Shown: positions 1,151-58,235 of the stretch, one piece after another
Layout: every line of letters begins with the position of its first letter
Position numbering within the stretch: position 1 is the stretch's first letter
From: a virus
IMG/VR virus record: IMGVR_UViG_3300022555_002641
Location: 1 to 64,000 of that record
DNA: 64,000 bases
Reading direction: 5' to 3' (one strand)
Program-made: the position numbers and the translations under genes
Notes under the pieces: generated by a model
Told to the model about the DNA's origin: nothing
Database searches by the model: none
What the model saw: only the letters and a program-made list of their open reading frames with translations

Positions 1151-1402
1151 ACTTCCACCAACAAATTCTTTCCAATCTGAGTCAATAGTAAAATCCCCTG
1201 CTGGGTTATTAATTAATACCCAATATCGATCATCTTCAGTACGAACCATCATACCCAAAGACCTTCTGAAATATGTTATAGAATTTCTTTCAGTTTTACC
1301 AGAGCATACTCTATATCCACCTTTAAAATAAATATCTTCGAGAATAGCATAAGTATCACCAGTCCAACTCGGTTCAAATTTACCTGTAATTCTTACGCCC
1401 AT
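1..1402 (-). CDS. Partial virion fibre-like protein with long Gly-X-Y (GSS/GTS/GTD) stalk; runs off the window start
   Basis: ATG at 1402 overlaps the TAA of the upstream gene. Translation MGVRITGKFEPSWTGDTYAILEDIYFKGGYRV...DWKEFVGGSGGTDGTSG... stays open to position 1. Absent from the ORF track because it has no stop in the window. Confidence 0.8.
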   Translation of the reverse strand, partial: MGVRITGKFEPSWTGDTYAILEDIYFKGGYRVCSGKTERNSITYFRRSLGMMVRTEDDRYWVLINNPAGDFTIDSDWKEFVGGSGGTDGTSGSSGTSGIDGSSGSSGISGTDGTSGSSGSSGISGTDGTSGSSGTSGIGADGSSGSSGTSGVDGVFTGSSGSSGSSGASGADGSSGSSGSSGTDGSSGSSGSSGSSGTSGSSGISGSSGSSGSSGTDGTSGSSGTSGSSGISGSSGSSGTSGVDGTDGTSGSSGISGSSGSSGSSGTDGTSGSSGISGSSGSSGSSGTDGTSGSSGSSGSSGSSGTDGSSGSSGSSGTDGTSGSSGISGSSGSSGSSGTDGTSGSSGVSGSSGSSGSSGTDGSSGSSGSSGTDGSGSSGSSGSSGTDGTSGSSGSSGSSGTDGTSGSSGISGSSGSSGVDGSSGSSGSSGTDGTSGSSGSSGSSGTDGSSGSSGNSGTDGTSGSSGT

Positions 1403-2322
1403 TAAGTTACAATTATATTTATTGCACCGCCTAAGGTGTAGGTTGTTCTATAAACTCTATAATTTGTTATTTGTGAAAACTGATTGATTACACTTACTAA
1501 ATCATATGAAAATCCATTTTCTGAATTAGGATATCCATTATACATATCAACTTGAAATCCTGTTAATGAATCAACAAAATTTGTAGGTCCACCATACACA
1601 TCGGCAAAACATAAATATTTATAATCATATTGACCAAAAGAATACGTCCTTGGATAATCTGAATATAAATTACTACTTGTTAAGCCTGTAATTTCAACAC
1701 CAGTTAAACCTGTAATTGGTGATGCCCCCCAATAAAACATCCAATCCCATCTAATAGAAAATGAATCAGTAAATGTTTGATTTTTTGTATTTTTAGCTGA
1801 AATATTCCATGTTCTAATTCCTATCCCATCACCAGATGTTCGAGTTACAGTCGGAGAGAACGTAACTGGATAAGTACCAGAATTAGCTAAATTTATTAAT
1901 GTCGTAATATTATATCCATAAATTGAAATTGTGTTAGCTGAAACACTCGCTGGATTTGAAATTGCCCACAATGCTGTATCTCCAGTGAAACTATGCCCAA
2001 TTTCAATGGTTCCTGTATGAGTAGCAAATGTGTATAATGTAAATGCTGGATATTGATATGGATACAGTAACAAATCCCACATTTCTTGCATATTTTTTCC
2101 TGGTATTGGAAAAGTTGTGCCAACTTCTACACCACCAATTGTTTCAGGAACAGGATTCGGATTTATGTATAAACTAAATGTTATTCCACTACTTATGATC
2201 ATAATAAGATCATGAATACTTATCTTTTTCGCATTAGAAGAATAAGTATCCTTATCTATAGGAAACCATATATTATTTAAGTCGTGTTCAGTAACTAAAT
2301 CACGAATTCTTATTATTTGCAT
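1402..2322 (-). CDS. Putative virion structural protein
   Basis: 306-aa Thr/Gly/Ser-rich ORF, AATATATAG motif upstream, coupled to the fibre gene. Confidence 0.65.
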   Translation of the reverse strand: MQIIRIRDLVTEHDLNNIWFPIDKDTYSSNAKKISIHDLIMIISSGITFSLYINPNPVPETIGGVEVGTTFPIPGKNMQEMWDLLLYPYQYPAFTLYTFATHTGTIEIGHSFTGDTALWAISNPASVSANTISIYGYNITTLINLANSGTYPVTFSPTVTRTSGDGIGIRTWNISAKNTKNQTFTDSFSIRWDWMFYWGASPITGLTGVEITGLTSSNLYSDYPRTYSFGQYDYKYLCFADVYGGPTNFVDSLTGFQVDMYNGYPNSENGFSYDLVSVINQFSQITNYRVYRTTYTLGGAINIIVT

Positions 2323-2415
2323 CCTCTTTCAACAATGTTTTATCTATATATTATTTTAAAAGAGAGGAAAACTGATTAAACGGAAAATCTGATGTATTTT
2401 TTTATATATACTGAT

Positions 2416-2745: not shown

Positions 2746-2747
2746 CT

Positions 2748-3214: not shown

Positions 3215-5173
3215 TTATGTAGCCGTTCCATTTCTACTTCTACCAACATGGGTATCATCTTGTCTTGCCGCAGCATATAATGTATCAGTATTATCTATCC
3301 ATTGTCCTGTGAATGTACCCCCTGCAACAGTTGTCAGATTCAATATAATTTCATCAGAGGTTGTACTAACAACACGATAAACATCAATCGGAATTCCAGA
3401 CCCATCACTTGAATATCCAGTGCATGTTCCAGATACTGTAAACATTATTGCACTATATGAATAATAATATCCATAATATGCAAAATTGGTTGGACCTGAA
3501 TCCAATCTATATTGTCTGGCTGAGATTAAATTCAGTCTATCTGGATCAGGGTCTCCGTTCCATCGTGTGAAATTGGAACGAGCTGCCCCATATAACGTCT
3601 GAAGTGCATTTCTTGCACCTTCACGACCCTGCCCATTATATAACAATTCCCATCCAAAATTTTCACCTTCCCCTGTATTTTGTTGTGCCATTAAAGAATA
3701 TGCACAATCTGTTGCAGCAGCCATGGCTGGAGTACATGCTACATATGTTAAAAATCCACCCTGATAATAATTAGTTTCTGGTATTGGGCAAGCTACCGCA
3801 GTAGCCCCTTGAACACGAGTTACTGTCATTCCACTACTAACTAATTGAAAGCATGTTTTCATATGAGCACCATCACCATTTATATGTTTTCCTGAAATAT
3901 AATTTAAATATAATATTCCAGATAAATTCCACCCAACTTGCGGAGTATTACTACCGAAATTTATTTGATAAAGATTTTTTCCTCGTGTTAAATTTATACC
4001 AGCAGACCCATTTTGCCCACTCGCATCAATTCGATGAAATAAACTGTATTGCCCCGCTTGAACAGAACCAACTATCATTGAATAAGTAGTTAATACTGTT
4101 TGACCTGTTGTGGAACCTGTAACGGCAATTTGTAGCCCAACCCCACCAGAATCAATCAAATATAAGGCTACCGCACTTTCCTTTAATTTTATAGGGGCTG
4201 GTTCTTCTATATACATATTTTTAGACCATGCCCCCATATATGTAACGCCAGTCCCCCCTATCCACCCTGAAGTATCCACCCCTCCTACCATTAGACTATT
4301 ATATATTGCTGTACTACCTGAATGATCATATTCATACGTACAAACAATCAATCCACCAGTAGTGGTAAATCTACTTGTTACAGGGGAAGATATCATCTGA
4401 ATAGATGTTGCTCCTGTTAAAATAAATGATGTCAAATTTTGAAACGCTCTCCCCCATCTCGAAGAATTTAAAGTTGCAGCATTTCTCCAGAACGTAAACT
4501 GAATATTATTTATTAAAGTTGCACCAGAAAAGTTACCAGTTGAATTACATGCATCATTAAATTGTAAATCTAAATATATTTGTCTAATTGTTATACCAGT
4601 TTCTGGTAAGTATGGTGTTAGCCCAAAGTTTCCAAAATTTGTTAAAGCTGGTATCGCAGCAGCACCACCAACAGTTTGATATGATGTAGTTAATATTGAT
4701 CTTGTTGATTCAATTGGTATCCTTATTGTTTTAATACGAGTATTAGAAATTGAATCTTCATATTGATAAGTAATTAAAATTTTAGCACCTATATTGGCAG
4801 TCGCAATAGTTCCTCCAGACCACCCAACATTCCATGCCATAGCGTTACCTGACCAATTTGATGTGAAATATGTCGTCATATCTCTTGCTAATTGCCAAGA
4901 CTCATGTTGAGCAGCATTAGCATTAGGGTTTGGTAAAACTATCCAGTTCATAGCGGCTGAACCAAGTTTGAACCCAATTGTAGGAGTAGTTAAAGATGCG
5001 GTAGTCGTATTATCACCAGCAACAAACAATTCTAATAGAACAGACTTAAAAACTAAAGTTGATTCTGGAATATAAATATTAGTATTACCAGTTAAGTATT
5101 TTATTGTAGCAGCAGCCAATGTAGTTATATCAGTCTGTGTTGAATATTCAATCATTTTTAATCTTGATGCCAT
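3215..5173 (-). CDS. Putative fibre-tip / receptor-binding structural protein
   Basis: 652-aa beta-rich Thr/Gly/Ala ORF directly downstream of the 2290-aa fibre. Confidence 0.6.
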   Translation of the reverse strand: MASRLKMIEYSTQTDITTLAAATIKYLTGNTNIYIPESTLVFKSVLLELFVAGDNTTTASLTTPTIGFKLGSAAMNWIVLPNPNANAAQHESWQLARDMTTYFTSNWSGNAMAWNVGWSGGTIATANIGAKILITYQYEDSISNTRIKTIRIPIESTRSILTTSYQTVGGAAAIPALTNFGNFGLTPYLPETGITIRQIYLDLQFNDACNSTGNFSGATLINNIQFTFWRNAATLNSSRWGRAFQNLTSFILTGATSIQMISSPVTSRFTTTGGLIVCTYEYDHSGSTAIYNSLMVGGVDTSGWIGGTGVTYMGAWSKNMYIEEPAPIKLKESAVALYLIDSGGVGLQIAVTGSTTGQTVLTTYSMIVGSVQAGQYSLFHRIDASGQNGSAGINLTRGKNLYQINFGSNTPQVGWNLSGILYLNYISGKHINGDGAHMKTCFQLVSSGMTVTRVQGATAVACPIPETNYYQGGFLTYVACTPAMAAATDCAYSLMAQQNTGEGENFGWELLYNGQGREGARNALQTLYGAARSNFTRWNGDPDPDRLNLISARQYRLDSGPTNFAYYGYYYSYSAIMFTVSGTCTGYSSDGSGIPIDVYRVVSTTSDEIILNLTTVAGGTFTGQWIDNTDTLYAAARQDDTHVGRSRNGTAT

Positions 5174-5215
5174 AAATTAAATTCTTTATTTTATATATTT
5201 ATAAAATGTAGTTCC

Positions 5216-8200
5216 TTATCTTTTTCTATACTTTATACTAATATGCAATTGAGTAACAGTACCACTCTGAGCTGTTGTTGTCATCATAACAAATCTACCA
5301 CCAGTAATTGCAGCACTTGAGAATGATGTAAAATTCTGCCCAGTTGTTGTACTGGTTATTGCTTGAGCTGATGAAAATATTGCAGTCCCAACAGCAGATA
5401 CATCAGCAGTATGGGTTGGATTAATTGTAACTGATGGTGTTGCTGAACCCATAATAACTGCCTCTATCGATATTATAGTTATACCAGTAAAAGCATAAAA
5501 CATTACAATATTTTCTGATGCACCAGGTGATTCTATTGTTATAGCTTTACTTTCTACAATAGCATCATCAATAGCTCTTAATGTGTAAGACAATGTACTT
5601 CCAGTATTTGCATAATTGACACCAGAGTATGTTACGATAGTATTGTCTAAAGGCCCAGCAATATTACCATCTGTTCCTGATGTACCAGCCGAACCTGATG
5701 ATCCAGAAGTTCCATCAGACCCTGAACTGCCTGATGAACCTGAACTACCGTCAGTACCTGAAATTCCTGAACTGCCTGATGTACCATCCGTTCCTGAATT
5801 ACCTGATGAACCTGAACTACCAGAAATTCCAGAACTACCTGATGTACCATCAGTACCTGAGCTACCTGATGAACCTGAGCTACCATCCGTACCTGAACTG
5901 CCTGATGAACCTGAACTTCCATCCGTACCTGAACTACCTGATGATCCTGAAGAACCTGATGTACCAGAAGTTCCTGAACTACCCGATGTGCCATCAGTTC
6001 CTGATGACCCTGAACTACCTGATGATCCTGAGGAACCAGAACTACCTGATGTACCAGATGAACCTGATGTTCCAGAGGTTCCTGAGCTTCCTGATGTTCC
6101 AGAAGTTCCTGAACTACCTGAACTTCCATCCGTACCAGATGATCCAGAAGAACCTGAACTGCCATCAGTGCCTGAACTACCTGATGAACCTGAACTACCA
6201 TCAATCCCTGATGACCCCGAAGAACCTGAGGTACCTGAACTGCCTGATGTGCCATCAGTTCCAGAACTGCCTGAAGAACCTGAAGAACCTGAGGTACCTG
6301 AACTGCCTGATGTGCCATCAGTGCCTGAACTGCCTGATGATCCTGAGCTACCTGATGTACCAGAAGTGCCTGAACTGCCTGATGTGCCTGAACTACCTGA
6401 TGTGCCATCAGTTCCTGAACTGCCTGATGACCCGTCAACTCCAATACCGCCACCGCCACCGCCACCGCCACCGCCAAAGCCGCCAAGACGATATCCTCTC
6501 CAATCTATCCAATTCAAGCCATTATTAGTTATTACAATTCTACCTCTAACAGAATTTGTAAACCCACTTGAAGTTTGATATATTAATGTGCCGATTGGAG
6601 TATATTCTTGTACTATTAATCCTTCTAATTTTAAATTAGCCATTTCAGTTTGAGCACCATTTGTAGCTAATTCAAGTGTTGCATATTCATTTTGCCCCAT
6701 TATAATATGAACATACTCCAACATATCATTTGTAGCAACTACATGATATAAAATAAATGTATTATCTGCTGGTTCTTTTAATAACCATGTAGTACCAGAA
6801 TTCTTATTATAAACAATTAGTCCTGTACCACCAGTTAAAACTGGTAATTTGTTATTTCCAATTTCCCAATGAATTGTATTTCCTGTTAAATAAAATATTT
6901 TTGTTGTAAACCCAGTTAAATGATCATCTATAATATGAATTATATCTTCATCCATTATAGTACCACTATGAACCATATAGGCAGCATGCTTATCTAAACT
7001 CCCATCACCTATTGTTATATTATTAATGGCGAGACCTGAAATATAATCTGTGCCAAATGCATAATGAAGAAGATAATGAGTGGCTGAATCCATAATCATT
7101 CCATGCCTTTCATCTCCTAAGTAAATTAATCGTTGAAAAACAGATTCCCAATAGGTTGCAGCTACAAAAACTTTATCAAAAATATAAGACTTATCAAATG
7201 TATCACCAGATAATAATTTTCCATAATTATCAAAATAAATATAAGACTTTTGAGTAATATCTGGTATAGTTATAGTTGCTCCAGTTAAATCATATCTTAC
7301 ACCTTTCGAATAAATTTCAAATGTTGCTCCAGTAGGAAGAATTGTAAGAACTCTTGACGTACTATTAAAAGTTATTACAGAATCCTGATTAGTCCATCTA
7401 AATCCAGTTGGTTCGCCTGTTTCACCACCAATTAATCCCATAATAATTCCAGAATTTCCAACCGTAGCTCCAGTAGTTGAAAAAATAGTACCACCAGTAA
7501 TTGCTAAAAATCCATCTGCATATGTGGTAGTATTAAGTTTTATAGTACCACCAGTCTTAATATCAAACAACAACTGATTATTATTCCACACGTCAAATTT
7601 TGATCCATCAGATGGAATTGTTGAACCTATTGTAACCTGATCTGTTTCAATCATTCTACCTTTGGAATCAATATAAAATTGAGGGCTTCTATCTAAATGA
7701 GCCGAATATACAGAAAAACGATATTGACCATGTGGTACAACTGTTATTATTTTTGGAGCTTTAATAACTGTGGTTGATGAAATTATTCTAATCCAATATA
7801 AATCATAATTTTCTTCAGTTGAAGCACCACTTAATTGATGATTAGCCCAATCTAATATTAAATTTTGTTCCCACCTAATTCTCCCATTTTGAGTTAAATT
7901 ATTTGTTTCATCATAATAATCACTATTTAATACTGTCAAATTTGTCCAGCCAGAATTGGAATCCCAATATTGTGTAATAATTGTAGCACCACTTGTTGGC
8001 TCAGATAAATTAAAATAAATATCATTAAACTTACTATCAAACCCAACATATATTGCAATAGTACTTCCTGTTAAAAACGAAATATTTGTATTATCAAATG
8101 TTGTAGAAGCATAATACGTAAAATCGATATAATTAGTTGTGTTATAATTTAAAGACCCTAATACTTCTGTAAACATAGGTGGAGAAACAGATACTGTTGA

Positions 8201-11200
8201 TTGTGGTAGCTGAGGATATGCATCAAATATCCAACCATCATTTAGACTGTGCCCAGTTATATTTTCAAATTTCGCTGTTATACCATTATCAAATTCAACT
8301 GGAATAGTAGAACATACTATTTCAATAGACCATGATGAATATGTTGCTCCATAATCAAGTGATTTTCTCCAATGAAAAGTATCTGATACACCTACAAATG
8401 AAATAAATATTTGATATGTTGTTTGATATGTTCTTGTATATAACCCGCCAATATTTAAATCATCTAATCCATTAAATGCTGGATTTAAGTATCCAGTATG
8501 ATATTGAAGAATATTTGACTGCTTGTTAAATCCAAATCTACCACCTTCCGAAACAACATATAAATCTCTTTTTGACTCATAATTATATGAATATTTAAAT
8601 TCTCCATGCTCATTTCGATATAAATAATCACTCCACTTTCTTATACCATCATCAGCCCAAACTATACCCCTATCACCATTACTAATACCATCTATCAATA
8701 AATTATTTTGCATGTCATCATTACTGTCAGGAACAGAGTCTAACCCATAAATGTGAATCAAATCCTGTGGGTCTTCATGATTAATGGCTACGTAGCCTTT
8801 TACACTACCAGAACTTTGAGATAATCTTTTATAATCACCCATTAAAACACGACCAATAGCGTCAACATAAAATGATGGAACTGGGTCTAAATTACCAGCA
8901 CGAACTCCAAATCTACGTTGACCATGTGGCGCAATTAAATAAACTGTCGGGGCTTTTATTATAGGAGTAGTTGAAGTTATTCTAATCCAATTCAAAGATG
9001 ATTTTCCTGTAATTGCTACCACAGATGCCCAATCTTTCATAGATGAGGTGTCCCATGATATTAATCCAGATTTTGTAAGGTTATATGTCTGATCTACATA
9101 ATTTTGAAAATACCCTAAAGTTGTCCAACCTGTTAATGTCGAATAATCTATCTTTAGTGTTACACCTGATGCAGAAGTTTCAATAGCAACGTATGCACTA
9201 TTAAATGCTCTATAAGAACCTATATAAGCCTCAGACGTTATACCTGTTAATAAAACATACGATTCTGGAAAAATTGAAGCAGAATTATATGTTTTATCTT
9301 GAAAATTTGGTATTGGTTCTGTATTATCGAATAATACTTGGACTTCGGTAAATAAATCAGGTGCCACCGAAAGTGATGCACCTGGTAATTGTGGAAATGC
9401 CCAAAATCTCCAAACATCATATAAATTATGACCTGATACATTTTTGAAATAAATTTGAATTCCATTTTCAATATCCGCAAAAAAATTAAAGCAATCCATA
9501 TCTATTGAATATGCACTCCAAGTAACACCATAATCAAATGATACTCTCCACTTATATTTATTCGGTACAGTAACTACATTTGTTATTGTGACTTCATAAT
9601 ATCGGATAATATTTTTATTGTAAACCCCTCCAACAACTAAATCATTTTGGGACCCTTGAGTTGGGTATAAATAATTTGCATGTGAATTCATTTTATTGGA
9701 ATTCCAATTTATACCAAATCTACCACCCTCAGATTCAACTAATATATCGGAATGAGTTGCAAATGAATATAAATATTTATATCCTCCATTTTCATTACGA
9801 TATAAGTATTCTTCAAATTTATTTACACCATTATCAGCATACATGATACCTTTATCACCGTCTGAAACACCATCAATCTTTAAATGATTATTCATTGTAT
9901 CATAGGAGTCTGCTATATTATCTAATCCAAATATATGAGCCATATCATCTGGCTCTACAGTATTAATGCCTAAATATCCTTTTTTAGAATATTGAGTATT
10001 CGATATGATATGATTATAATCACCAATTATTAATCTACCACTACCATCTACATAAAATGCTGGAGATGCATCCATATAAGCTGAATACACAGCTAATCGA
10101 TAGAGACCATTTAAAGATATTGAATCTATAACTGGAGCAATTGTTGGCTGCGTTGTGGTTGTAATTCTAATCCAATATAAATCATACCCACTACCCTCAC
10201 CAGGAAATTGATACGATATCCAATTTAATGTATGCCTATCCCATTCAACTTTACCATCTTTAGTTAAATTATTGGTAAAATCAACCAAAGCCCCAACGGT
10301 ATATCCAGTAGAGATTTCTGTCCACCCTGACGAAGAATAATATTCAAGTTTTAGAGTTATCCCACTGGCATTAATTCCAGTATTAAAATATGCAGAGTTA
10401 TATGGTAAATGCCATCCAATATAAATAGCAGATGTAATAGAGCTCAGGCATGTTTCAAATCCAGAAAATGTTGTAGATAAACTATTTGTAATATCATTTG
10501 TTTCTGGAATTACATCATTAAAATTATTTGTTATTAAAATTTCAGTATACCCTACAGGTGCTATTGTAAATGTACCTTGCGGTAATTGTGGAAATGCTGT
10601 AAATTGCCATCTATCAAATACTGTATGCCCAGTTAAATTTTCAAATGATATTGTAATTTCAAATTCTATTGAAGTATCACCAGTAGTCACTGGAATATTT
10701 ATAGACCAAGAATTCCATGTTAATCCAAAATCAGAAGACTTTCTCCAATGAAATTGATCTGGTGATAATTGAGATATAGATACTTCATAAAGTGTCTGGT
10801 ATAATCTATCATACCATCCACCAACATTCATATCATTTAATGCGCCATCAACTCCACCAAAATATTGAGAATGATAATTCATAACATTAAACTGCTTATT
10901 TATTCCAACACGACCAGACCTTGAATAAACAGTTGATATATTATTGGCTTCAGGGTTATAAACATATAAATAATCACTTTTTTCATCACGATATGTTTGT
11001 AACGCCCATTTTTGAATATTTTCTTCATTAAAAACTAAACTTTTATCTGATGATGATGATCCATCAATAGATATTGCAGAATCTGGACTGATATCCGTTT
11101 GACTAACATAATTACTTACATTCGATCCATAAATATGAATTCTTGTTGATGGGTCACCATCGTTGCCTATTTTTAAATATTTCTTATTATTAAATGTGAA

Positions 11201-12088
11201 TCCACTATCAGTATTATATCCGTATGTTGACCCAGTTTCTCTAAATAAAATTTCATATTGATTACCAACTAATGGAAATCCTGTTGTTATTCCACTGTTA
11301 ATCCAATATCCATCATGATATATTAAAATATCACCTTCTGTAACACCAGTTAATCCAGAAACAGAACCGAATATTGCAATTTCATAATATCCATCTTCTG
11401 GAGTATTATATTGTATTTTTCCAGTTAATGGCTTAAAGGTAAAACTACCAGCTTCTATTAATTTTTCTGAAATTTCCCAAGTATTTCCAGTAGAATTCCA
11501 TGCTATTATTTGATCTGTTTTAGTTGGAGTTCCAGATAATTTTATTGTTGAAAAATAATAATTAGTCCAAGACCCAGCACTAAATAATAATAAGTCGCCA
11601 TTTTGAGGTAATACTATATTAACATCAGTTAAACCACTTAAAGATGTTACCCCACCAACGCCTGACGTTCCTGATGTTCCTGAACTGCCAGATGATCCAG
11701 ATGATCCAGATGATCCAGATGATCCTGAGCTACCTGATGTACCGTCAGTTCCTGATATTCCATCTGTTCCTGATGTTCCATCTATCCCTGATGTTCCTGA
11801 TGTTCCTGATGTTCCATCTATCCCTGATGTTCCTGATGTTCCTGAGGTTCCATCAGAACCTCCCCCACCAGTAATATCGCCTTCCATTAATACTCTTCGA
11901 ATGCTCGTTTTGCATCGTATCCATAATTTTTCATCAACCGTATTAAGAAAGAATTCTCCTTCATAAATATCACTAATCATCCATGCTGGCAAAATAGTAT
12001 GATCATTGGAAGGTGCTGTTGTAGCACTTAATGCTGGTACATCTGTTCTCTTAATTAAAAATCTTGAATATCTTGGAATTTTGGTCAT
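5216..12088 (-). CDS. Large tail-fibre-like protein (N-terminal attachment module, three internal repeats, Gly-X-Y stalks)
   Basis: 2290 aa. N-terminal RFLIKRT..EGEFFLNTVDEKLWIR; three copies of GR.G.N..D..[IV]GG.Y..PQLP..NLT..G...W..WIRI..FY[VI]D..GR; two GSS/GTS tracts. Confidence 0.75.
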   Translation of the reverse strand: MTKIPRYSRFLIKRTDVPALSATTAPSNDHTILPAWMISDIYEGEFFLNTVDEKLWIRCKTSIRRVLMEGDITGGGGSDGTSGTSGTSGIDGTSGTSGTSGIDGTSGTDGISGTDGTSGSSGSSGSSGSSGSSGSSGTSGTSGVGGVTSLSGLTDVNIVLPQNGDLLLFSAGSWTNYYFSTIKLSGTPTKTDQIIAWNSTGNTWEISEKLIEAGSFTFKPLTGKIQYNTPEDGYYEIAIFGSVSGLTGVTEGDILIYHDGYWINSGITTGFPLVGNQYEILFRETGSTYGYNTDSGFTFNNKKYLKIGNDGDPSTRIHIYGSNVSNYVSQTDISPDSAISIDGSSSSDKSLVFNEENIQKWALQTYRDEKSDYLYVYNPEANNISTVYSRSGRVGINKQFNVMNYHSQYFGGVDGALNDMNVGGWYDRLYQTLYEVSISQLSPDQFHWRKSSDFGLTWNSWSINIPVTTGDTSIEFEITISFENLTGHTVFDRWQFTAFPQLPQGTFTIAPVGYTEILITNNFNDVIPETNDITNSLSTTFSGFETCLSSITSAIYIGWHLPYNSAYFNTGINASGITLKLEYYSSSGWTEISTGYTVGALVDFTNNLTKDGKVEWDRHTLNWISYQFPGEGSGYDLYWIRITTTTQPTIAPVIDSISLNGLYRLAVYSAYMDASPAFYVDGSGRLIIGDYNHIISNTQYSKKGYLGINTVEPDDMAHIFGLDNIADSYDTMNNHLKIDGVSDGDKGIMYADNGVNKFEEYLYRNENGGYKYLYSFATHSDILVESEGGRFGINWNSNKMNSHANYLYPTQGSQNDLVVGGVYNKNIIRYYEVTITNVVTVPNKYKWRVSFDYGVTWSAYSIDMDCFNFFADIENGIQIYFKNVSGHNLYDVWRFWAFPQLPGASLSVAPDLFTEVQVLFDNTEPIPNFQDKTYNSASIFPESYVLLTGITSEAYIGSYRAFNSAYVAIETSASGVTLKIDYSTLTGWTTLGYFQNYVDQTYNLTKSGLISWDTSSMKDWASVVAITGKSSLNWIRITSTTPIIKAPTVYLIAPHGQRRFGVRAGNLDPVPSFYVDAIGRVLMGDYKRLSQSSGSVKGYVAINHEDPQDLIHIYGLDSVPDSNDDMQNNLLIDGISNGDRGIVWADDGIRKWSDYLYRNEHGEFKYSYNYESKRDLYVVSEGGRFGFNKQSNILQYHTGYLNPAFNGLDDLNIGGLYTRTYQTTYQIFISFVGVSDTFHWRKSLDYGATYSSWSIEIVCSTIPVEFDNGITAKFENITGHSLNDGWIFDAYPQLPQSTVSVSPPMFTEVLGSLNYNTTNYIDFTYYASTTFDNTNISFLTGSTIAIYVGFDSKFNDIYFNLSEPTSGATIITQYWDSNSGWTNLTVLNSDYYDETNNLTQNGRIRWEQNLILDWANHQLSGASTEENYDLYWIRIISSTTVIKAPKIITVVPHGQYRFSVYSAHLDRSPQFYIDSKGRMIETDQVTIGSTIPSDGSKFDVWNNNQLLFDIKTGGTIKLNTTTYADGFLAITGGTIFSTTGATVGNSGIIMGLIGGETGEPTGFRWTNQDSVITFNSTSRVLTILPTGATFEIYSKGVRYDLTGATITIPDITQKSYIYFDNYGKLLSGDTFDKSYIFDKVFVAATYWESVFQRLIYLGDERHGMIMDSATHYLLHYAFGTDYISGLAINNITIGDGSLDKHAAYMVHSGTIMDEDIIHIIDDHLTGFTTKIFYLTGNTIHWEIGNNKLPVLTGGTGLIVYNKNSGTTWLLKEPADNTFILYHVVATNDMLEYVHIIMGQNEYATLELATNGAQTEMANLKLEGLIVQEYTPIGTLIYQTSSGFTNSVRGRIVITNNGLNWIDWRGYRLGGFGGGGGGGGGGIGVDGSSGSSGTDGTSGSSGTSGSSGTSGTSGSSGSSGSSGTDGTSGSSGTSGSSGSSGSSGTDGTSGSSGTSGSSGSSGIDGSSGSSGSSGTDGSSGSSGSSGTDGSSGSSGTSGTSGSSGTSGTSGSSGTSGSSGSSGSSGSSGSSGTDGTSGSSGTSGTSGSSGSSGSSGTDGSSGSSGSSGTDGSSGSSGSSGTDGTSGSSGISGSSGSSGNSGTDGTSGSSGISGTDGSSGSSGSSGSDGTSGSSGSAGTSGTDGNIAGPLDNTIVTYSGVNYANTGSTLSYTLRAIDDAIVESKAITIESPGASENIVMFYAFTGITIISIEAVIMGSATPSVTINPTHTADVSAVGTAIFSSAQAITSTTTGQNFTSFSSAAITGGRFVMMTTTAQSGTVTQLHISIKYRKR
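5670..6440. repeat. Gly-X-Y coding repeat
   Basis: Same unit family as 1-1150 and 62030-63270. Confidence 0.95.
11663..11860. repeat. Short Gly-X-Y coding repeat
   Basis: cctgatgtt / ccagatgat tandem units. Confidence 0.9.
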
Positions 12089-12154: not shown

Positions 12155-12769
12155 CTATATCACTGGGGTAAACAAGTTCAGTACTTCCCAATGATTAGGT
12201 GAAGCATCAATAATTACTATAGTTTGTAAATATTCCAACAAATAGTATATTACATTATCATCAAGAAATCCAACACCAGTATCTATTGAAATTATTCCTG
12301 AACCACTAATATTTTTAATATAAAGTATTTTACCACTTCCAGTAGCAATGGGAAGTTTAATAGTATATGTAGCACCACTACACCTAATGTATTGATCTGC
12401 TGTTGTTCCTGTATATTCTGATGATATATTAGTTATAATTAAATCTGAGGACCCAGAAGTGCCAGAAGTGCCTGAACTTCCATCAGTTCCAGATGTCCCT
12501 GATGTTCCTGATGTTCCTGATGTTCCAGTTCCACCACCAGTAACATCCCCATCCATGAGAATTCTTCTTATTTTTGTACTACATCTAATCCATAATTTTT
12601 CATCAACAGAATTAAGGAATAATTCACCTTCATAAATATCTGTATCTAACCATTGCGGTAATAATGTATGATCATTAAATCCACCCAAATCTGGTGCAGT
12701 TGTTGCACTTAACGTTGGAATATCTGTTCTCTTAAGAAGTATTCTGGAAAATTTTTCAATTTTTGGCAT
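12155..12769 (-). CDS. Short fibre-like protein, paralogous N-terminus to the 2290-aa fibre
   Basis: Shares SR.L.KRTD.P.LSATTAP..NDHT.LP.W..DIYEGE.FLN.VDEKLWIRC; short GTS tract; small C-terminal beta domain. Confidence 0.7.
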   Translation of the reverse strand: MPKIEKFSRILLKRTDIPTLSATTAPDLGGFNDHTLLPQWLDTDIYEGELFLNSVDEKLWIRCSTKIRRILMDGDVTGGGTGTSGTSGTSGTSGTDGSSGTSGTSGSSDLIITNISSEYTGTTADQYIRCSGATYTIKLPIATGSGKILYIKNISGSGIISIDTGVGFLDDNVIYYLLEYLQTIVIIDASPNHWEVLNLFTPVI

Positions 12770-12812: not shown

Positions 12813-14906
12813 TTAACCATTTCCATCTATGATCGAATATACAAAAGGTGAACCGTCTGGTACGCCTATCACAGTATTGAGCCCAAGATCAAAGTACTCC
12901 CAATAATATGATAACGATGTATTGTAGCCACCATCCAATATATTCCAATTTAAGAAATATGAATTAAGTAATTTATCTATAGTCTTTAAATTAACTGGGA
13001 ATCTTGTCTTTCTATCACCACCAACAAATATCAATTCAATCGGCTTATAATAAAGTTGCGAATCACCATCTGTATCGTAAAGTTTAAATGTATATTCATT
13101 AGCATCATTTTCATAAATAATGCCAGTGATATTTGTACTACTTGATGATGTACCTGTTAAAATTAAAGTTTCAATCTTATCCGTTAGAACTTTTGCATAT
13201 GCACCACATATGCTACTCTTAATGTTTTGTGAGAATGGTTTGTACCAATCATATTCAATATTCATATACAATTCATAGAGTAAATCTGAAATATTTGTCA
13301 ATCCATCAATATTTTGAATCGATGTGACTGGATTTGTACCCAACCACTTGACAGGTTTTTCAATTGTTATCTCAGTATCAGTAACATTCCATATCAACGT
13401 CTTTTCTAACGAATCACCATTAACCTGAACAAATGTATATTTTCTAAATGATGATGTTAATCCAGTTGAAGCAAACGTTAATACAACCCTATGATTATCT
13501 GTATATACGGAATATATAGGAACCAACGATATGCTGTTATACATACTAAATGATGGTAAAAATAATGGAGGATTTATTTCTGCTAAACGATCATATAATT
13601 TATATTTTAAAAATTGATTTGCCGTTGTAAACGCAACGGTTATTAACCCATCAGCCACACCAAATGTTAATCCATGATAATCAAAATATTTATCAAATTT
13701 AGCTTCACGTGTATAAAACTCAAGATTATGAATAGCTCCACTTGTTGTAGCTGATAATGAATAAAAATAATTATAAGGTGTATTGTTTTGTAAATTTGTA
13801 ATAGCTTCATTCCAATTTGTTGCAATTGAATAATTTATCACTTCGAATGTCGTTGCAGATACATCTATTAACAGATTGTTTGGTAATAATTCTTCTAATC
13901 TGAACGTTGTTGATCCAGTATCTTTAATGAATACGTTATAATTTAAAAAGTTATCAGTTAATCCAGTAAACATTCTTATATTCAAATAATCGCCAGTCTT
14001 GGCATCAAATGGAGATATATACGGAAAAACAGTATATCCACCTACATTGGATATACTGGTTGTTAGTCCTGTGTAAGAATTAGAATTTGTAATACCAGTT
14101 CGAATTGAATAATCATTATGATGATAATTTATTTTGAAATAATAATTAGATACTGGGGTAGAATTATTGATGGATGTTGTAGAATTATTATACAATGCAT
14201 AATTCTCAGTTATCTGTTTTCTTGCTAAATCGTAGTCTGTAAATATAACTCTCGTTGTTATTCCTGAATTGATACTTGTATTATACAAATTATATTTAAG
14301 CAAATGCTTAACAATAAACGACCGACCTTCAATAAATACCTTTACCTCATTTGTAATTGGGAATTGTGACCCATTGTTTACCAAGTAAAATTGGCGATCA
14401 AATCCAGTTCCAAGTTTAACACCTACTGTAAATTTATATGATTTATCTCTTGTTGGTATTAAATTGGCATTAATCAAATAAAATTGAGAAGATACCCTAT
14501 ACACATCGTTCTCATATTTATTTGTTTGCCCATATAATAAAACCAAATGCCCAACTCTAAGCTTAACATTATCAAGCTTGTACCACTGCTGTCTAAGATC
14601 AATATTATCTATAGTAGCAACATCAACAAATTTGAAATTCATCATAGTATTTCGAATAACATCGTACTCATTATACATGTTAACAATACTATATCCGTCT
14701 CCAGTTAAGATGTCTTTCTTATAGATATCCTGTAAATTGTTAATGTATGAGAACGTAACACCAGTCAAATACTTATTAAACTTGAAATAAACATCACTAA
14801 CATTAATAAAACGGGTATCATTAAATTGTTCTAATCGATCCTGTTGATACCATACATTATTTGCTTTAACCCAATCAAATTTTCTTGACCAAATATCCCT
14901 TTGCAT
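12813..14906 (-). CDS. Putative virion/baseplate-associated protein
   Basis: Contains VDVATIDNIDL..DNVKL..GHLVLLYGQTNKYENDVY, resembling the ATT.NI.L..DGV.L..GDRVLVK.QT...ENGIY motif of phage tail proteins. Confidence 0.55.
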   Translation of the reverse strand: MQRDIWSRKFDWVKANNVWYQQDRLEQFNDTRFINVSDVYFKFNKYLTGVTFSYINNLQDIYKKDILTGDGYSIVNMYNEYDVIRNTMMNFKFVDVATIDNIDLRQQWYKLDNVKLRVGHLVLLYGQTNKYENDVYRVSSQFYLINANLIPTRDKSYKFTVGVKLGTGFDRQFYLVNNGSQFPITNEVKVFIEGRSFIVKHLLKYNLYNTSINSGITTRVIFTDYDLARKQITENYALYNNSTTSINNSTPVSNYYFKINYHHNDYSIRTGITNSNSYTGLTTSISNVGGYTVFPYISPFDAKTGDYLNIRMFTGLTDNFLNYNVFIKDTGSTTFRLEELLPNNLLIDVSATTFEVINYSIATNWNEAITNLQNNTPYNYFYSLSATTSGAIHNLEFYTREAKFDKYFDYHGLTFGVADGLITVAFTTANQFLKYKLYDRLAEINPPLFLPSFSMYNSISLVPIYSVYTDNHRVVLTFASTGLTSSFRKYTFVQVNGDSLEKTLIWNVTDTEITIEKPVKWLGTNPVTSIQNIDGLTNISDLLYELYMNIEYDWYKPFSQNIKSSICGAYAKVLTDKIETLILTGTSSSSTNITGIIYENDANEYTFKLYDTDGDSQLYYKPIELIFVGGDRKTRFPVNLKTIDKLLNSYFLNWNILDGGYNTSLSYYWEYFDLGLNTVIGVPDGSPFVYSIIDGNG

Positions 14907-15817: not shown

Positions 15818-18800
15818 ATGAATTCTTTAATTTTTTTCAATAAAGATGGATATCCGCACAACTTTCAATATAACACCACCGAAGATCGCTGGGACGGTAA
15901 ATTAATGTTTGATGAAAACGGATCAGACACGTTTAAAACACAAAGTTTTTATATTTTTGAAGATGTACCACCAATAGATTTTGTTACAACAGCAGATATG
16001 CTAAAACTTACTTATTTCAATTATAGTGGCATAACATTCACCAAAAGCGTTCCTTATGAAAATGAGATTATTACAAACATAAAAAAAGTGAACGATTCCA
16101 ATAAATTTTATTCAAAATGGATATATGGTACTGATTTTGATAAGAAATTTTCAAAAGGTACTATCATTACATTTAGCGGAGTAACTGGTACAGGAACTAC
16201 ATTAACAGACTTTACTGATGATTTATATTTTACAGTTCTGGATAATAAGAAGAATGGTTTGCTAATTAATACAAAAACTGATAACAGCCTATTCAATTTT
16301 CAATTTTATAGTGGCATCATTAAAAAATCATTAAACGTTATTTCAGTAAATGATTATAACCAAAATTTAAGTTCATATGAATTCTTTCAAAATTTATACA
16401 AAGATAAGAAATTTTCAGTATTAAATTCGACATACAACGATACGCTTATAAACGTTACCAGAACAGGACAAACTTATTCATATATTAACGAAATAAAACT
16501 AACTGGTAAAACAAATCAAACATTCAAACTAAGAGTCGATTTTCTAACCGAAAGACCAAAACTTTATCAAGGTGATATCGTTGTATTAAATGATCTTCAC
16601 ACAAGTATAAATTATATGTGGTTTAGTAAATTGAATTCAAATTTTGAAGTTGGTAAAGAAATAATTCTTGAAGATATAAATGGAAACAAACTCATGTCTG
16701 GATACACATTTACAATTGATGAAATCGTTGATCGTGAAGAATTAGGTGAAAAGGTTTTAAAATTCAATGTTAACTATGCTACACCATACCACAAACAAGG
16801 AAAAGCAACTCTTAAAGATTACACTATAGAATATGATGGTTATATAAAATCGTTTGTGATTACAGATATTTTAGTTTTATCCGCAGTTACTTTTTCTGGT
16901 GCAACAATAGGTCCTTCAGTACTGCATGATAATAGAGAGTTTAGTGTAATAAGCACATCATATAACACAACTAACGGTAAAACAACGTTAAGAGTTCGTG
17001 GATACGTATTACCTGAAAGTGGAAATACATATAAAATTTTCAAAAAATATCAAGAAAAGCAACTTCATAGTATAAAGATTACACCAAGTGGTGGGATTGC
17101 CAATGGGCATTCCTACAGATTTAACAATGCAATTTGCTACACTACAACAACATACCTTGACTTTTCGCAAACAATATTGCAAGAAACTGGGATAACATAC
17201 TTTCATACAATTGATTCATTTATAAAAAAACATAGAAATACACTTAATAAATATGGGATCGAAGCATATTATACAGAAAAAAATAATAATAGCTATTTAA
17301 CAATAGAAGGTGATCATGGCTATACACATCCATATTTCTATGCATCTGGACTTACAAATAATGCAGCATTAATAAGCGATTTTTCAACTTCAACTCATGG
17401 AAGTACAACAAGATATGATATAATTGTTGATAACACACTATTCAGTGAACGATATTTTAAAAACGATATAAATCATCTCAGTAGAAATGCAACTGCTGAA
17501 ATTTTAATGAATCTGCAATATAATACATCAAGGTATGGATTTAGATTAACACTTAATAGTAATCAATATTACACGGAATTTACTGGAAACACTCAAACAA
17601 CTATTAATTCTTTCATAAATAATTATGGATCAATTTTCAATAGTAATGGGTTTTATATAAGTAGCGGATATAATTTTTCGCATAGCGGGTACACATTAGA
17701 TATTGCTGGTATTAATCCAGATGTTAATATTTGGAGTTTGGAAGTTTTGGTAAATATTTTATCTACATATTCAATTATAAAACATAATGAAAATAAAGGA
17801 ATAATTTTATCTGGCAATGAAATAAAAACTATCAATGATCATTATTTTGATGTTGGACTGGCTACAGGAATGATTATAAAAATAACAGGTAGCACTTATA
17901 ATGAAAACAATAAAGAATACAATATTGTCGGATTAACTGATAAAATCATACAGCTTTCATATCAAGGTGGTTTTATGAATGAATTAAATGCTAATTTAAT
18001 CTGTTCTACCAGAGAATTTATAAGAAAACCAAAGCTTTCTTACAATAAGGATATTTACTTTAAAGTTTCATGGGAGCAGCCGCATGATCCTTCAATGTTT
18101 CTGTATGATATTACTGGAAAACAATTGGAATTATATGATGGAGTTGAAGTTTTACGATATACTGGTCCTACACCATTAATCGATACTATTTCAAATAATG
18201 TTGTATTTCTAAATTCAGCACCAAATGATAATATAGAAAGAGTTAATAATCCAAAATTTCAGCAAACAGTTTTTACCGAACTTTATTATAAACTTGATCA
18301 ATTAGATTCTTCAACAAGTTATAACTGGATTCCAGAGCCATTAGAAATCTTTATGGGTTATAACGATAAATTGGAAGGTGTAAATTCTAACACCCTTAAA
18401 ATTGAAAAAATTGAAAGATTCGAAAATACGAAAATTCAATTCAATTTTTCTGGCTACACCTCACCAGGTTTTTATAGCAACAATAATTTTATTTTGACTG
18501 GAAATACATTAAGATACTTATCAACGTATTTTAATTTCTTATCATACGGATTTGAAATTGGACAGCCATTAACTCTTAATTTTATTGATCAAGTTTCAAC
18601 TGGGCAAACTATATTTGAAAATCATGGAATTTTTAAAATTGTAGATATATCAAGAGATAGATTGACTTTTGATCGAACTGGTGAAACGTTTAATACCACA
18701 GGATCAACTTATTTCTTTAATCTAATTGTTGAGCCTAAAGAAATTCTTTCATGTCCAATTTATGGTGAGACTGAAATTGAAGATTTAAGATATAAAATTA

Positions 18801-20119
18801 ACCTTAATAATCTTGGAGTTCAATTGAATGATGATACATCTATCATCTTTAAAGAAACTGATATTGAAGATAATGCAGTAGATTATAAAATCTTAAATTA
18901 TAAACGAAAAGAAATGCTATCTACATTGCATGAAATTTATGATTATATAGGATCATATAAAGGGCTGATTAATTCTATTCACTTCTTTGGCTATAATGAT
19001 CTTGAACTTTATGAATACTACAAAAATATTGATAAAGCCTCACCGCTTTATAACAAACTTCATAAGGTAAGGATTCCAGATATTTTTGATAATACAATAG
19101 AAGGTTGGAATGAGATTGACTTTATTGCTGGGAAATATCAAAATCAAAATACTTGGAAGAAAACAAATTTGTTCAATCTTACTTACCGCATAACAGATGA
19201 AGAAGGCGCAAATATTCTGATGTATTCATTGGAAGAGGTTCAATATAAACTTACCAAATTAAAAACCTGGTTGAGAAACAATATAATTCCAATTTCGTCA
19301 AACCTTTTGGATATTACAGGTGTTGCTGATACAACCCATGATTTATGGCAAGAATGGGACGAATCAAATCAAACCAAAAAATCTGTGGTAACAAGAAATT
19401 CAACAACTGTTAATTTTAACTACACGGCAACTTTGAATTTTAGTACAAACTATCTTATAACTGTTTATTTTTATGTATTATCTGGTGAAACTGGTACAAC
19501 AATGGATTTTTCAGATATTCCAGAGTCATTCACAGCCAAAATAAAAACATATTTCCTATCAGGATCAACGATGATACCAGTTCAATATCATAAATTAAGA
19601 AAAAGTGATCTTACATCATTTAGTTTTAATCTTGATAAAGAAGTCGATCCATATATATACATTGAAACAACTACATATGATAATGGCGGGTCTGGCGTAG
19701 GATTCTGTAATAACAAACTTTTCTTCTTTGATGAACCAAGAAATCATTGGCTTGTTAATCACAATTTTGATATGACACAGTTTAAGTATTGGTTAACTGA
19801 AAAGGATGAAACAATTACCAGTGTAATAACTTCCGATCTTGATACACCTATTGAAACAAATATTGAACTGATCAATCAGGAATTCTTTATTTATGATTCA
19901 GATAGCAACCTTGATATGATTAAGCCATCAGGACCTTCTAAAGTACAAGAAGTAGTCTGTATTGTTATCGATGCACAATTAACCCTTGATAAGGTATATA
20001 GAGTGTATGCACAATTTGATAGTGATATATTTTCATCTGGAAGTTGTACTATCGTAATGAATGATTCTGGAATTATGCAAGGTTATGATTCAAATTTCTT
20101 TATACCAATCTTTAGATGA
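15818..20119 (+). CDS. Large virion structural protein (possibly baseplate)
   Basis: 1433 aa, TTAATATATA upstream, [ST]GxT-rich; YIGSYKGLINSIHFFGY segment reminiscent of baseplate wedge proteins (function is inference). Confidence 0.55.
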   Translation: MNSLIFFNKDGYPHNFQYNTTEDRWDGKLMFDENGSDTFKTQSFYIFEDVPPIDFVTTADMLKLTYFNYSGITFTKSVPYENEIITNIKKVNDSNKFYSKWIYGTDFDKKFSKGTIITFSGVTGTGTTLTDFTDDLYFTVLDNKKNGLLINTKTDNSLFNFQFYSGIIKKSLNVISVNDYNQNLSSYEFFQNLYKDKKFSVLNSTYNDTLINVTRTGQTYSYINEIKLTGKTNQTFKLRVDFLTERPKLYQGDIVVLNDLHTSINYMWFSKLNSNFEVGKEIILEDINGNKLMSGYTFTIDEIVDREELGEKVLKFNVNYATPYHKQGKATLKDYTIEYDGYIKSFVITDILVLSAVTFSGATIGPSVLHDNREFSVISTSYNTTNGKTTLRVRGYVLPESGNTYKIFKKYQEKQLHSIKITPSGGIANGHSYRFNNAICYTTTTYLDFSQTILQETGITYFHTIDSFIKKHRNTLNKYGIEAYYTEKNNNSYLTIEGDHGYTHPYFYASGLTNNAALISDFSTSTHGSTTRYDIIVDNTLFSERYFKNDINHLSRNATAEILMNLQYNTSRYGFRLTLNSNQYYTEFTGNTQTTINSFINNYGSIFNSNGFYISSGYNFSHSGYTLDIAGINPDVNIWSLEVLVNILSTYSIIKHNENKGIILSGNEIKTINDHYFDVGLATGMIIKITGSTYNENNKEYNIVGLTDKIIQLSYQGGFMNELNANLICSTREFIRKPKLSYNKDIYFKVSWEQPHDPSMFLYDITGKQLELYDGVEVLRYTGPTPLIDTISNNVVFLNSAPNDNIERVNNPKFQQTVFTELYYKLDQLDSSTSYNWIPEPLEIFMGYNDKLEGVNSNTLKIEKIERFENTKIQFNFSGYTSPGFYSNNNFILTGNTLRYLSTYFNFLSYGFEIGQPLTLNFIDQVSTGQTIFENHGIFKIVDISRDRLTFDRTGETFNTTGSTYFFNLIVEPKEILSCPIYGETEIEDLRYKINLNNLGVQLNDDTSIIFKETDIEDNAVDYKILNYKRKEMLSTLHEIYDYIGSYKGLINSIHFFGYNDLELYEYYKNIDKASPLYNKLHKVRIPDIFDNTIEGWNEIDFIAGKYQNQNTWKKTNLFNLTYRITDEEGANILMYSLEEVQYKLTKLKTWLRNNIIPISSNLLDITGVADTTHDLWQEWDESNQTKKSVVTRNSTTVNFNYTATLNFSTNYLITVYFYVLSGETGTTMDFSDIPESFTAKIKTYFLSGSTMIPVQYHKLRKSDLTSFSFNLDKEVDPYIYIETTTYDNGGSGVGFCNNKLFFFDEPRNHWLVNHNFDMTQFKYWLTEKDETITSVITSDLDTPIETNIELINQEFFIYDSDSNLDMIKPSGPSKVQEVVCIVIDAQLTLDKVYRVYAQFDSDIFSSGSCTIVMNDSGIMQGYDSNFFIPIFR

Positions 20120-58219: not shown

Positions 58220-58235
58220 TGTTTTATTTTTATTT

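Follow-up and report, generated by a model that had tools for sequence, protein, structure and literature searches.

A [ST]GxT word enriched in putative particle proteins of one huge-phage lineage is a candidate recognition sequon

The window and its carrier proteins

The stretch of DNA analysed here, called the window, comprises positions 1 to 64,000 of the IMG/VR virus record IMGVR_UViG_3300022555_002641 and forms the initial 64 kb of a virus contig of 121,682 bp, whose completeness is estimated by CheckV at 17%. Nine putative particle proteins encoded in the window are, as a set, strongly enriched in a four-residue word, [ST]GxT, in which Ser or Thr (position 0) is followed by Gly, a variable residue (x) and Thr at position +3. 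Its enrichment is confined to a single huge-phage lineage, and there to some of the proteins only, and we propose that it may serve as a recognition mark for a phage-encoded modification. The window has a guanine plus cytosine (GC) content of about 0.29-0.37. The nearest named relatives of the contig are uncultured huge phages of 460-735 kb, the best of which, LR756501, shares 40% identity over 92% of the 1433-amino-acid (aa) protein. Jumbo phages of Tenacibaculum, Chryseobacterium and Prevotella are more distantly related to it. The complete relative LR756501 was used as the motif-rich comparison genome, and LR756504 (GC 0.26), LR756502 (GC 0.32) and LR745206 (locus GC 0.29) as motif-poor sister huge phages. 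The motif index is the number of T at +3 per [ST]G dipeptide, scored on T-rich proteins in the genome comparisons. For the fibre counts, collagen tracts (runs of at least five G-x-y triplets) were masked, and expectations and z scores were obtained from composition-preserving shuffles of each protein.

Table 1 Carriers of the [ST]GxT word, neighbouring genes and the sugar-nucleotide gene in the window
Feature	Position	Strand	T at +3 per [ST]G	z	Remarks
306-aa protein	1402..2322	-	4/9	~4	No Pfam or PHROG match
652-aa tandem jelly-roll protein	3215..5173	-	11/24	7.1	Family widespread in large phages, members mostly motif-poor
2290-aa fibre	5216..12088	-	31/56 outside tracts		Pfam Collagen and PHROG tail-fibre families
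204-aa protein, short collagen-like tract	12155..12769	-	2/8		Not significant alone; weak PHROG tail-collar and structural-protein matches
697-aa protein	12813..14906	-	7/13	7.8	Weak PHROG 'head decoration' match (E 4.7e-4)
1433-aa all-beta multidomain protein	15818..20119	+	22/34	~17	Richest carrier; shuffled expectation 1.5
GDP-L-fucose synthase (Fcl) homologue	48950..49879	+			NCBIfam NF047922, 495.8 bits against a cut-off of 500; Pfam Epimerase
212-aa protein	57611..58249	-	2/2		Right-end operon
1061-aa T-rich protein	58468..61653	-	5/21	1.2	Right-end operon; not enriched
649-aa collagen-like fibre protein	61672..63621	-	5/11 outside tracts	4.4	z on 241 unmasked residues

Homology and gene position suggest that the carriers are particle proteins. 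The 1433-aa protein is probably a baseplate or tail-periphery protein; it gives no Pfam, PHROG or PDB sequence match, and its homologue in Tenacibaculum phage PTm1 is located 1.3 kb from an annotated baseplate wedge gene. The N-terminal 570 residues of the 697-aa protein are homologous to a 1550-aa protein of LR756501 (25/46), which is encoded upstream of the head genes. The 2290-aa fibre is composed of two collagen-like G-[ST]-[ST] tracts and three repeat modules of ~380 aa (residues ~330-1480). Each module contains an Asp-box, S-x-D-[FY]-G-x-T-[WY], together with the same four [ST]GxT positions, and about 12 of the 31 fibre sites are paralogous copies in the three modules (both assessed by eye). 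The 652-aa protein is encoded directly downstream of the fibre, and the two together resemble a C1q-type molecule whose collagen stalk and globular head are encoded by separate genes. Pairing of a 652-aa-type gene with a long fibre gene recurs in many of 78 related loci. Very long collagen-like tracts, built almost entirely of G-S-S, G-T-S and G-T-D triplets, are found in an open-ended 467-aa frame at window positions 2-1402 (- strand; 38% S, 30% G) and in the 649-aa fibre protein. Within these tracts the residue after [ST]G is S or D, not T.

The carriers are unrelated to each other by sequence, as the first-pass annotation of the window had stated. Among the motif proteins, Pfam detects collagen repeats only, in the fibre; PHROGs add to this only three weak matches and the collagen-type tail-fibre families, and PDB sequence searches with four of the proteins return collagen only. 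When the profile of the 1433-aa family is cut into 21 overlapping windows of 130 residues and these are compared by HHalign, one repeat is obtained at a probability of 92-93%, with the rest at or below 58%. This repeat is a ~45-residue unit (residues ~458-501 and 589-634) that starts with TG.T at a helix N-cap. One repeated domain as the source of the word was rejected on these profile comparisons of the 1433-aa family, in which the ~45-residue unit is the single internal repeat.

Enrichment of the word

Together, the nine putative particle proteins have T at +3 in 89 of 177 [ST]G dipeptides; T at this position reaches 4.7x background, and S 0.6x. The baseline across 28 other open reading frames (ORFs) of at least 150 aa, located between 20867 and 56412, is 3/59. 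Among these ORFs, SbcCD (0/5) and ClpC (0/4) have no [ST]G with T at +3, in line with the absence claimed earlier. An unbiased scan of all a-b-x-c patterns places TG.T (51 observed, 6.4 expected) and SG.T (38 observed, 4.8 expected) in the top two positions by a wide margin. When the whole contig is scanned, no further protein stands out for the motif.

The hand counts of the first-pass annotation (22/34, 7/13, about 11, and more than 25 in the fibre) are exactly reproduced, with 31 fibre sites lying outside the tracts. The comparison with composition-shuffled controls, which that annotation had proposed as a check, gives z scores of 7-18, and confirms that the motif enrichment is real and strong. 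At the right end, where that annotation had seen more sites, the 212-aa protein has 2/2 and the 649-aa fibre protein 5/11, but the 1061-aa protein is not enriched (Table 1).

Codon use varies at each of the three fixed positions (S is encoded by AGT and TCN, G by GGA/GGT, T by ACA/ACT), which indicates that selection acts on the protein and not on the DNA, and a word at the DNA level is ruled out. A composition artefact is likewise ruled out by the shuffles together with the low scores of T-rich proteins in other phages, described below.

Sequence properties of the word

When T or S directly precedes the Gly, the residue two positions after the Gly is T in 55% and 45% of cases, respectively; with N, D, G or V before the Gly, it is T in 8-11%. 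In the contig and LR756501 together, 33 motif-rich proteins contain 349 motifs in 727 [ST]G sites, whereas [DN]G.T accounts for only 27 of their 359 [DN]G dipeptides (7.5%). The threonine at +3 is coupled to the preceding S/T and not to the Gly turn. S and T are used about equally at position 0, whereas at +3 T is strongly preferred to S (349 vs 55). Proline is scarce at x (4 observed, 12.4 expected). In these 33 proteins the flanks are nearly uninformative, apart from an excess of hydrophobic residues at -3, -1, +2 and +4, and position -1 favours L (2.4x), not D. The spacing of the sites is broad and aperiodic, with some close doublets 3-12 residues apart.

The word differs from the sequon of general O-glycosylation in Bacteroidota, as had been noted earlier. 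D[ST][AILVMT] is at or below its shuffled expectation in all seven proteins tested (z -1.3 to 0.6). As candidate explanations, the known sequons D[ST][AILVMT] and N-x-[ST] were both rejected, since neither is enriched in the motif proteins.

The word as a trait of one lineage

The T-rich proteins of the contig have T at +3 in 86 of 172 [ST]G dipeptides (50%) and those of LR756501 in 247 of 590 (42%), compared with 25/232 (11%) in LR756504 and 62/464 (13%) in LR756502, with a GC content of 0.26-0.32 throughout. The particle proteins of T4 have 18/173 (10%), including 0/18 in gp34. The motif in LR756501 is concentrated in 26 proteins, which hold 265/567, while the other 698 ORFs have 63/1214. 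The LR756501 orthologue of the 2290-aa fibre has 32/68. Homologues of the 1433-aa protein in the three sister huge phages, which have equally low GC, have 0/17, 2/24 and 3/19, and the PTm1 homologue has 1/8. Low GC as a driver was rejected, because LR756504, LR756502 and LR745206 are all motif-poor.

The difference extends to many families. In 21 homologous pairs, which cover 11 of the 26 motif-rich proteins of LR756501, the aligned parts contain 85/181 in LR756501 and 21/138 in the motif-poor partners (Fisher p ~1e-9; one LR756501 protein may enter two pairs). Where motif sites are aligned with motif-poor homologues, the latter read, for example, HGVD, QGSI, NGSI or LGIT; the Gly is often kept, whereas the two hydroxyl residues are not. 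These comparisons support the convergent selection for a linear motif that the first-pass annotation had postulated, with same-fold homologues in the sister phages that stay motif-poor and a shift across 11 families.

In a FastTree tree of 125 members of the 1433-aa family, which is midpoint-rooted and contains long branches, a motif-rich clade of 103 rows (101 of them rich) has a support of 91 and a motif-poor clade of 21 rows a support of 99, with the motif-poor PTm1 homologue outside. This topology is compatible with a possible single origin of the motif followed by long maintenance. The motif-rich lineage includes this contig, LR756501 and ~100 metagenomic relatives. The 652-aa family occurs in large phages with a GC content of 0.31-0.71, and its members range from 0/13 to 12/25, the distant ones being at chance. 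At 78 IMG/VR loci with relatives of the 652-aa protein, the T-rich neighbours are mostly at ~10%, and the nearest relative alone reaches 53%; over 54 loci the motif index of the 652-aa homologue correlates weakly with that of its neighbours (Spearman 0.29, p 0.04). The sequence comparisons thus show a restriction of the word to one clade and to a subset of proteins, with same-fold homologues that lack it.

The carriers are T-, G- and S-rich, and some of their sites are copies of each other, namely the paralogous sites of the fibre modules and the ~45-aa repeat of the 1433-aa protein. A descent of all carriers as mosaics of one ancient motif-bearing module, or a mere effect of their T/G/S richness, could in principle produce such sites. 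It is very improbable as an account of the word: the richness is controlled for by the shuffles and by the T-rich proteins of other phages (10-13%), while common descent is at odds with the lack of any other HHalign repeat in the 21 windows, with the almost uninformative flanks, and with the widespread occurrence of the 652-aa scaffold without the motif. Ancestry or composition as the explanation is largely refuted.

Conservation and turnover of the sites

Among the matches listed, 120 homologues of the 1433-aa protein have a mean of 51% T at +3. In an alignment of 89 full-length homologues, sites 70, 878 and 961 are ~90% conserved, and the others are lineage-specific. The x position is more variable (0.31 identity) than the flanks (0.44) in this alignment. 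Orthologues from the contig and LR756501, which are 35-55% identical, hold similar totals of motifs (22/22 for the 1433-aa, 7/7 for the 697-aa and 11/9 for the 652-aa protein). The positions they have in common number 11/22, 3/7 and 6/11, respectively, and 14/27 in the fibre, whose distal third is non-homologous. By chance one or two sites per protein are expected, so the unshared sites represent real gains or losses. The alignments thus point to a motif that is maintained with positional turnover.

Structural context of the sites

AlphaFold (AF2) predicts residues 1-1100 of the 1433-aa protein as a chain of beta domains, with a predicted local distance difference test (pLDDT) score of 83.4, and the 652-aa protein as tandem jelly-rolls, with a pLDDT of 92.5 and a predicted template modelling (pTM) score of 0.92. 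Foldseek with the former model returns only matches of low template modelling (TM) score to multi-beta-sandwich proteins and no clear PDB match. The latter model matches single-chain TNF/C1q heads, reelin repeats and PNGase F. When 30 sites are mapped on the two models and assigned by DSSP, seven are all strand, eight are all coil and 15 are at the boundary of a strand or a helix; many of them link two strands, and three precede helices. The motif sites are internal and mostly located in regions of high pLDDT. Non-motif [ST]G sites are found in the same kinds of DSSP context.

This arrangement brings in a structural explanation, in which [ST]-G forms a Gly turn or beta-bulge, both hydroxyl residues cap or stabilise it, and nothing is attached. 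The lineage would use this turn type heavily in long-lived extracellular proteins, in the manner of a shortened Asp-box or of the kink in the heavy-chain variable domain (VH) of antibodies. The Asp-box (S-x-D-x-G-x-T-W) and the VH kink (S-G-[FY]-T-F) are structural motifs that occur in unrelated folds. The word resembles both in its G-x-T, which in these two motifs precedes a hydrophobic residue at a strand switch or beta-hairpin. Full Asp-boxes are nevertheless limited to the three fibre modules, and most sites lack S-x-D and have S/T directly before G. Moreover, neither the Asp-box nor the VH kink is known to have the lineage-wide on/off pattern of the word.

Further observations fit such a turn. 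Many of the sites connect strands, hydrophobic residues surround the sites, and the Gly often persists at the aligned position in motif-poor homologues. In the better-conserved columns of the 1433-aa alignment, N is the main replacement of S/T (52 vs 6 for D), and S is the main replacement of T. The word also occurs within tandem structural repeats in fibres of unrelated phages of high GC. In fibre proteins of L059 (7577-9367, +) and L085 (12147-14450, +), it is part of a 20-residue tandem repeat, ...P-[IVL]-T-A-S-G-[ST]-T-T-T-x-G-S-A..., and of modules of ~120 aa with G-G-T-G-L-T and [ST]-G-Y-T. The weaker enrichment of contigs L098, L085 and L056 consists of tandem repeats that contain the word. 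The window proteins, with their broad spacing and one HHalign repeat, do not have the fixed-period recurrence of the L059 and L085 fibres.

A turn that serves structure alone would have to account for the simultaneous change of 11 unrelated families in this lineage, which did not take place in sister phages of the same GC and the same folds. It would also have to account for the generic turn formers D-G and N-G, after which T(+3) is not enriched, and for the [ST]G turns that do without the motif in the same contexts, the local DSSP contexts being heterogeneous. Finally, beta-rich core parts of the particle (portal, wedge) and all non-particle proteins are spared. We regard the structural explanation as possible but less likely than a mark for modification.

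Candidate modifying enzymes

The first-pass annotation had pointed to the GDP-fucose synthase as the supplier of a sugar donor. The assignment of the Fcl homologue holds (Table 1), but its specific link to the word is unsupported. Its counterpart in LR756501, which is 65% identical, does not belong to the genes that are unmatched in motif-poor genomes, and it does not track the motif. Searches for fucosyltransferase and OGT families gave no matches, but the O-FucT control was also empty, so this result is uninformative.

Family 2 glycosyltransferase (GT2) matches number 10 in LR756501 and 1 in this contig, and 1, 5 and 3 in three motif-poor genomes. BLASTP against two motif-poor genomes gives no match for eight of the nine LR756501 ORFs with a GT2 domain. 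One of the LR756501 genes (78099-79553; L014:2099-3553, +) encodes a 484-aa GT2 protein and follows directly after the T4-like major capsid gene (76340-78166). This protein has no BLASTP match in LR756504 or LR756502, and its adjacency to the capsid gene is kept in the two nearest IMG/VR relatives. Among 80 loci around homologues of this capsid-adjacent GT2, almost none have T-rich proteins within 10 kb.

A second group of candidates is located in the tail module of LR756501. Among five records, matches to PF00534 occur only in LR756501 and are absent in the three sister huge phages. Two PF00534 proteins of 738 aa and 1140 aa are encoded at 580135-585922 (L040:10135-15922, -), between a gp6-like wedge gene and a motif-rich collagen-like protein (11/21). 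The 738-aa protein has a GT4-like N-terminus and a C-terminus that resembles GT9 heptosyltransferases (31.6 bits against a cut-off of 22), and the 1140-aa protein belongs to glycosyltransferase group 1. Where close homologues of the pair occur in IMG/VR loci, they adjoin motif-rich proteins in nine of nine cases. The weaker-enriched contigs L098, L085 and L056 and five motif-poor contigs have no homologue of the 1140-aa transferase.

A phyletic profile gives 27 proteins of LR756501 that are common to this contig and have no match in two motif-poor genomes. The annotated ones are mostly metabolic (tRNA-synthetase-like, adenylosuccinate synthetase, NUDIX, deoxyribosyltransferase, ATP-grasp, OmpA, ABC ATPase), and none of them is a clear candidate for a modifying enzyme. 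The profile includes an R2K-clade ATP-grasp protein (contig 88174-88998, +), a NUDIX protein (contig 86101-86781, +) and a radical-SAM protein (window 43258-44208, +). In LR756501 the radical-SAM and NUDIX genes are adjacent and lie beside the terminase. These three proteins are possible alternative modifying enzymes.

Such proteins bring in a different trans-acting reader of the word that arose in the lineage, for instance a Ser/Thr kinase, a chaperone for the assembly of fibres or tails, a ligase of the ATP-grasp type, or an enzyme that modifies or cross-links proteins in some other way. The lineage-wide gain of the word and its coupling to the hydroxyl residue at position 0 suit such a reader as well as they suit a glycosyltransferase, and the ATP-grasp protein and the radical-SAM/NUDIX pair have the expected distribution. 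None of these candidates adjoins motif-rich genes, however, and metabolic enzymes dominate the list of shared genes. We know of no precedent for a chaperone or kinase word at this density. A reader of this kind is improbable on present evidence.

A proposed sequon-like mark for modification

In our reading, [ST]GxT would mark sites, in the manner of a sequon, for a modification that the phage itself encodes, with O-glycosylation as the likeliest type; we assign this reading a probability of roughly 0.45. The motif would have been acquired and kept on many unrelated beta-rich outer particle proteins in one huge-phage lineage, as the recognition word of a trans-acting factor new to it. A phage-encoded cytoplasmic glycosyltransferase is the likeliest such factor. 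Acting on proteins during or after folding, it would O-glycosylate one of the word's two hydroxyl residues, so that glycans would cover the tail and fibre apparatus. Local structure alone does not readily account for three observations that are as expected from a newly acquired trans-acting reader, namely the concerted, lineage-restricted gain of the word, the sparing of cytoplasmic and core particle proteins, and the existence of the same folds without the motif elsewhere. A glycosyltransferase is the most plausible reader because of the gene content and the known precedents. The presence of the carriers in the particle, the exposure of the sites, the occurrence of any modification, its nature as a sugar and the responsible enzyme are points that we infer, and glycosylation as the modification is plausible but unproven. 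In its fullest form, which we hold still more tentatively, the proposal describes a glycosylation code of the lineage's own. The tail-module glycosyltransferases would read [ST]GxT on beta-sandwich and jelly-roll domains and place sugars over fibres, receptor-binding heads and decoration proteins, and the word would have been written convergently into at least 11 families and kept through deep divergence.

The O-glycosylation proposed in the first-pass annotation gains from the extra GT2 and PF00534 genes of LR756501, two of which are located in the tail module. It remains unproven, and the enzyme argument amounts to a single phylogenetic contrast. A search for glycosyltransferases elsewhere in the genome, which had been suggested along with it, finds one GT2 gene in the contig (112486-113178), which is far from the motif genes, and no counterpart of the tail-module pair.

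Several points weigh against the modification proposal, and the presence of only this one GT2 gene in the contig is one of them. On the side of the enzymes, the nine loci that carry the 738/1140-aa pair all belong to one clade. Chance would be enough to yield lineage-specific glycosyltransferases, given that 456 of the 724 LR756501 proteins (63%) are unmatched in the two motif-poor genomes. The motif-poor LR756504 also encodes a homologue of the GT9-like half of the 738-aa protein. The window's contig, at 17% completeness, contains no homologue of the pair, and two of the tandem-repeat contigs without a homologue of the 1140-aa transferase are 95% and 44% complete (CheckV). On the side of the sites, the confidently predicted beta structure around them and their hydrophobic neighbours at -3, -1, +2 and +4 would suit a structural turn or bulge; N and S as the main replacements of S/T and T, and the tandem structural repeats of unrelated high-GC phage fibres, weigh in the same direction.

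The choice of carriers is a further point of this kind. In LR756501 the portal has no [ST]G at all and the gp6-like wedge has 0/7; two large tail-module proteins have 0/5 each. The major capsid protein has 3/10 in LR756501, and 3/10 and 3/8 in motif-poor genomes. A mark 'coating the particle', as the first-pass annotation put it, is therefore too broad, the capsid protein having no lineage shift and the portal and wedge no motif. Its restriction to 'virion proteins only' agrees with the baseline level of the other ORFs but is partly an assumption, since the carriers are putative particle proteins. Some T-, G- and S-rich proteins bear the word, but particle proteins as a whole do not. The bearers are fibres and collagen-like proteins, jelly-roll heads and large proteins of several domains, together with a decoration-like protein whose gene precedes the head genes.

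Comparison with known systems

General protein O-glycosylation in Bacteroidota uses the sequon (D)(S/T)(A/I/L/V/M/T) (PMC8550257). It resembles the case described here in that a short word with an S/T acceptor occurs in many copies on many unrelated proteins of one lineage. The word itself differs, and the residue favoured at -1 is L here, not D. Bacteroidota O-glycosylation acts on proteins exported beyond the cytoplasm, whereas phage particles assemble in the cytoplasm.

Mycobacteriophage virions carry glycans on the C-termini of capsid and tail-tube subunits, as summarised in a later paper (Freeman et al. 2023, via PMC12619734). The likeness to that account lies in the proposed placement of sugars on particle proteins and in glycosyltransferase genes beside structural genes, which in LR756501 are the GT2 gene after the capsid gene and the two GT-B genes in the tail module. 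In contrast to those glycans, as far as they are described there, the candidate sites here are internal, in folded beta domains of fibre-like proteins, and are known from sequence alone, and the capsid protein has no lineage-specific gain.

TibC and AAH, bacterial autotransporter heptosyltransferases (BAHT) that act on TibA and AIDA-I, provide a precedent for a cytoplasmic GT-B enzyme that hyperglycosylates many Ser residues on loops of a beta-rich adhesin, and TibC superposes on the GT9 heptosyltransferase WaaC (PMC4358343). The GT9-like domain of the LR756501 738-aa protein may be similar in kind to TibC; a homologue of this domain is also present in LR756504, which is motif-poor. The BAHT enzymes (TibC/AAH) target periodic beta-helix repeats, unlike the aperiodic sites in sandwiches and jelly-rolls considered here.

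A virus-encoded GDP-fucose pathway is known from chloroviruses, whose capsid is glycosylated in the cytoplasm at atypical sequons; these glycans are N-linked and the host is eukaryotic. The window phage is likewise a large virus with sugar-nucleotide enzymes, including a GDP-fucose synthase homologue. The word is different, however, and the Fcl homologue does not track it.

The open-access literature searched describes neither this word nor any sequon on the particle proteins of phages. Glycosylation of particles and O-glycosylation guided by a sequon are each known already, and the code would be of a categorically new flavour only if confirmed. If true, this would be the first case of a phage particle with a sequon-defined glycan coat, and one that sequence alone could predict in uncultured viruses. 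If the word marks a modification site, particle glycosylation or another coat chemistry would become readable from metagenomes of phages that nobody can grow. A phage would then be able to impose its own sequon on many structural proteins at once, and a compact, portable tag-and-enzyme pair could be looked for. If the word is a structural idiom instead, it would be an unusual four-residue turn word that one lineage has switched on in a whole set of its proteins. Such a case would inform beta-protein design as well as the study of joint adaptation among particle proteins. Either way, the prediction is sharp and can be tested cheaply on recombinant proteins.

Other genes of the contig

Phmmer with T4 proteins as probes locates portal, capsid, a sheath fragment, terminase and wedge in LR756501; the portal, capsid, sheath, terminase and wedge probes give no match in the window's contig. 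The Pfam sheath and HK97 capsid models have no match in the two genome records searched. Beyond the window, a 295-aa ORF at contig 68495-69382 (+; L201:4495-5382) weakly resembles the middle of the T4-type major capsid protein (Pfam Gp23, E 9e-4, below the cut-off). It is 26% identical to residues 364-545 of the LR756501 capsid protein and may be a capsid-like fragment or paralogue.

Within the window, between the two groups of carrier genes, Pfam identifies an M16 peptidase (28866-30146, +), a nicotinate phosphoribosyltransferase (31443-32708, +), a homologue of the CBASS inhibitor Acb3 (45312-46019, +; E 4e-42), a hybrid histidine kinase with a receiver domain (47030-48538, +) and an IS605 OrfB/TnpB-type gene (53329-54492, +).

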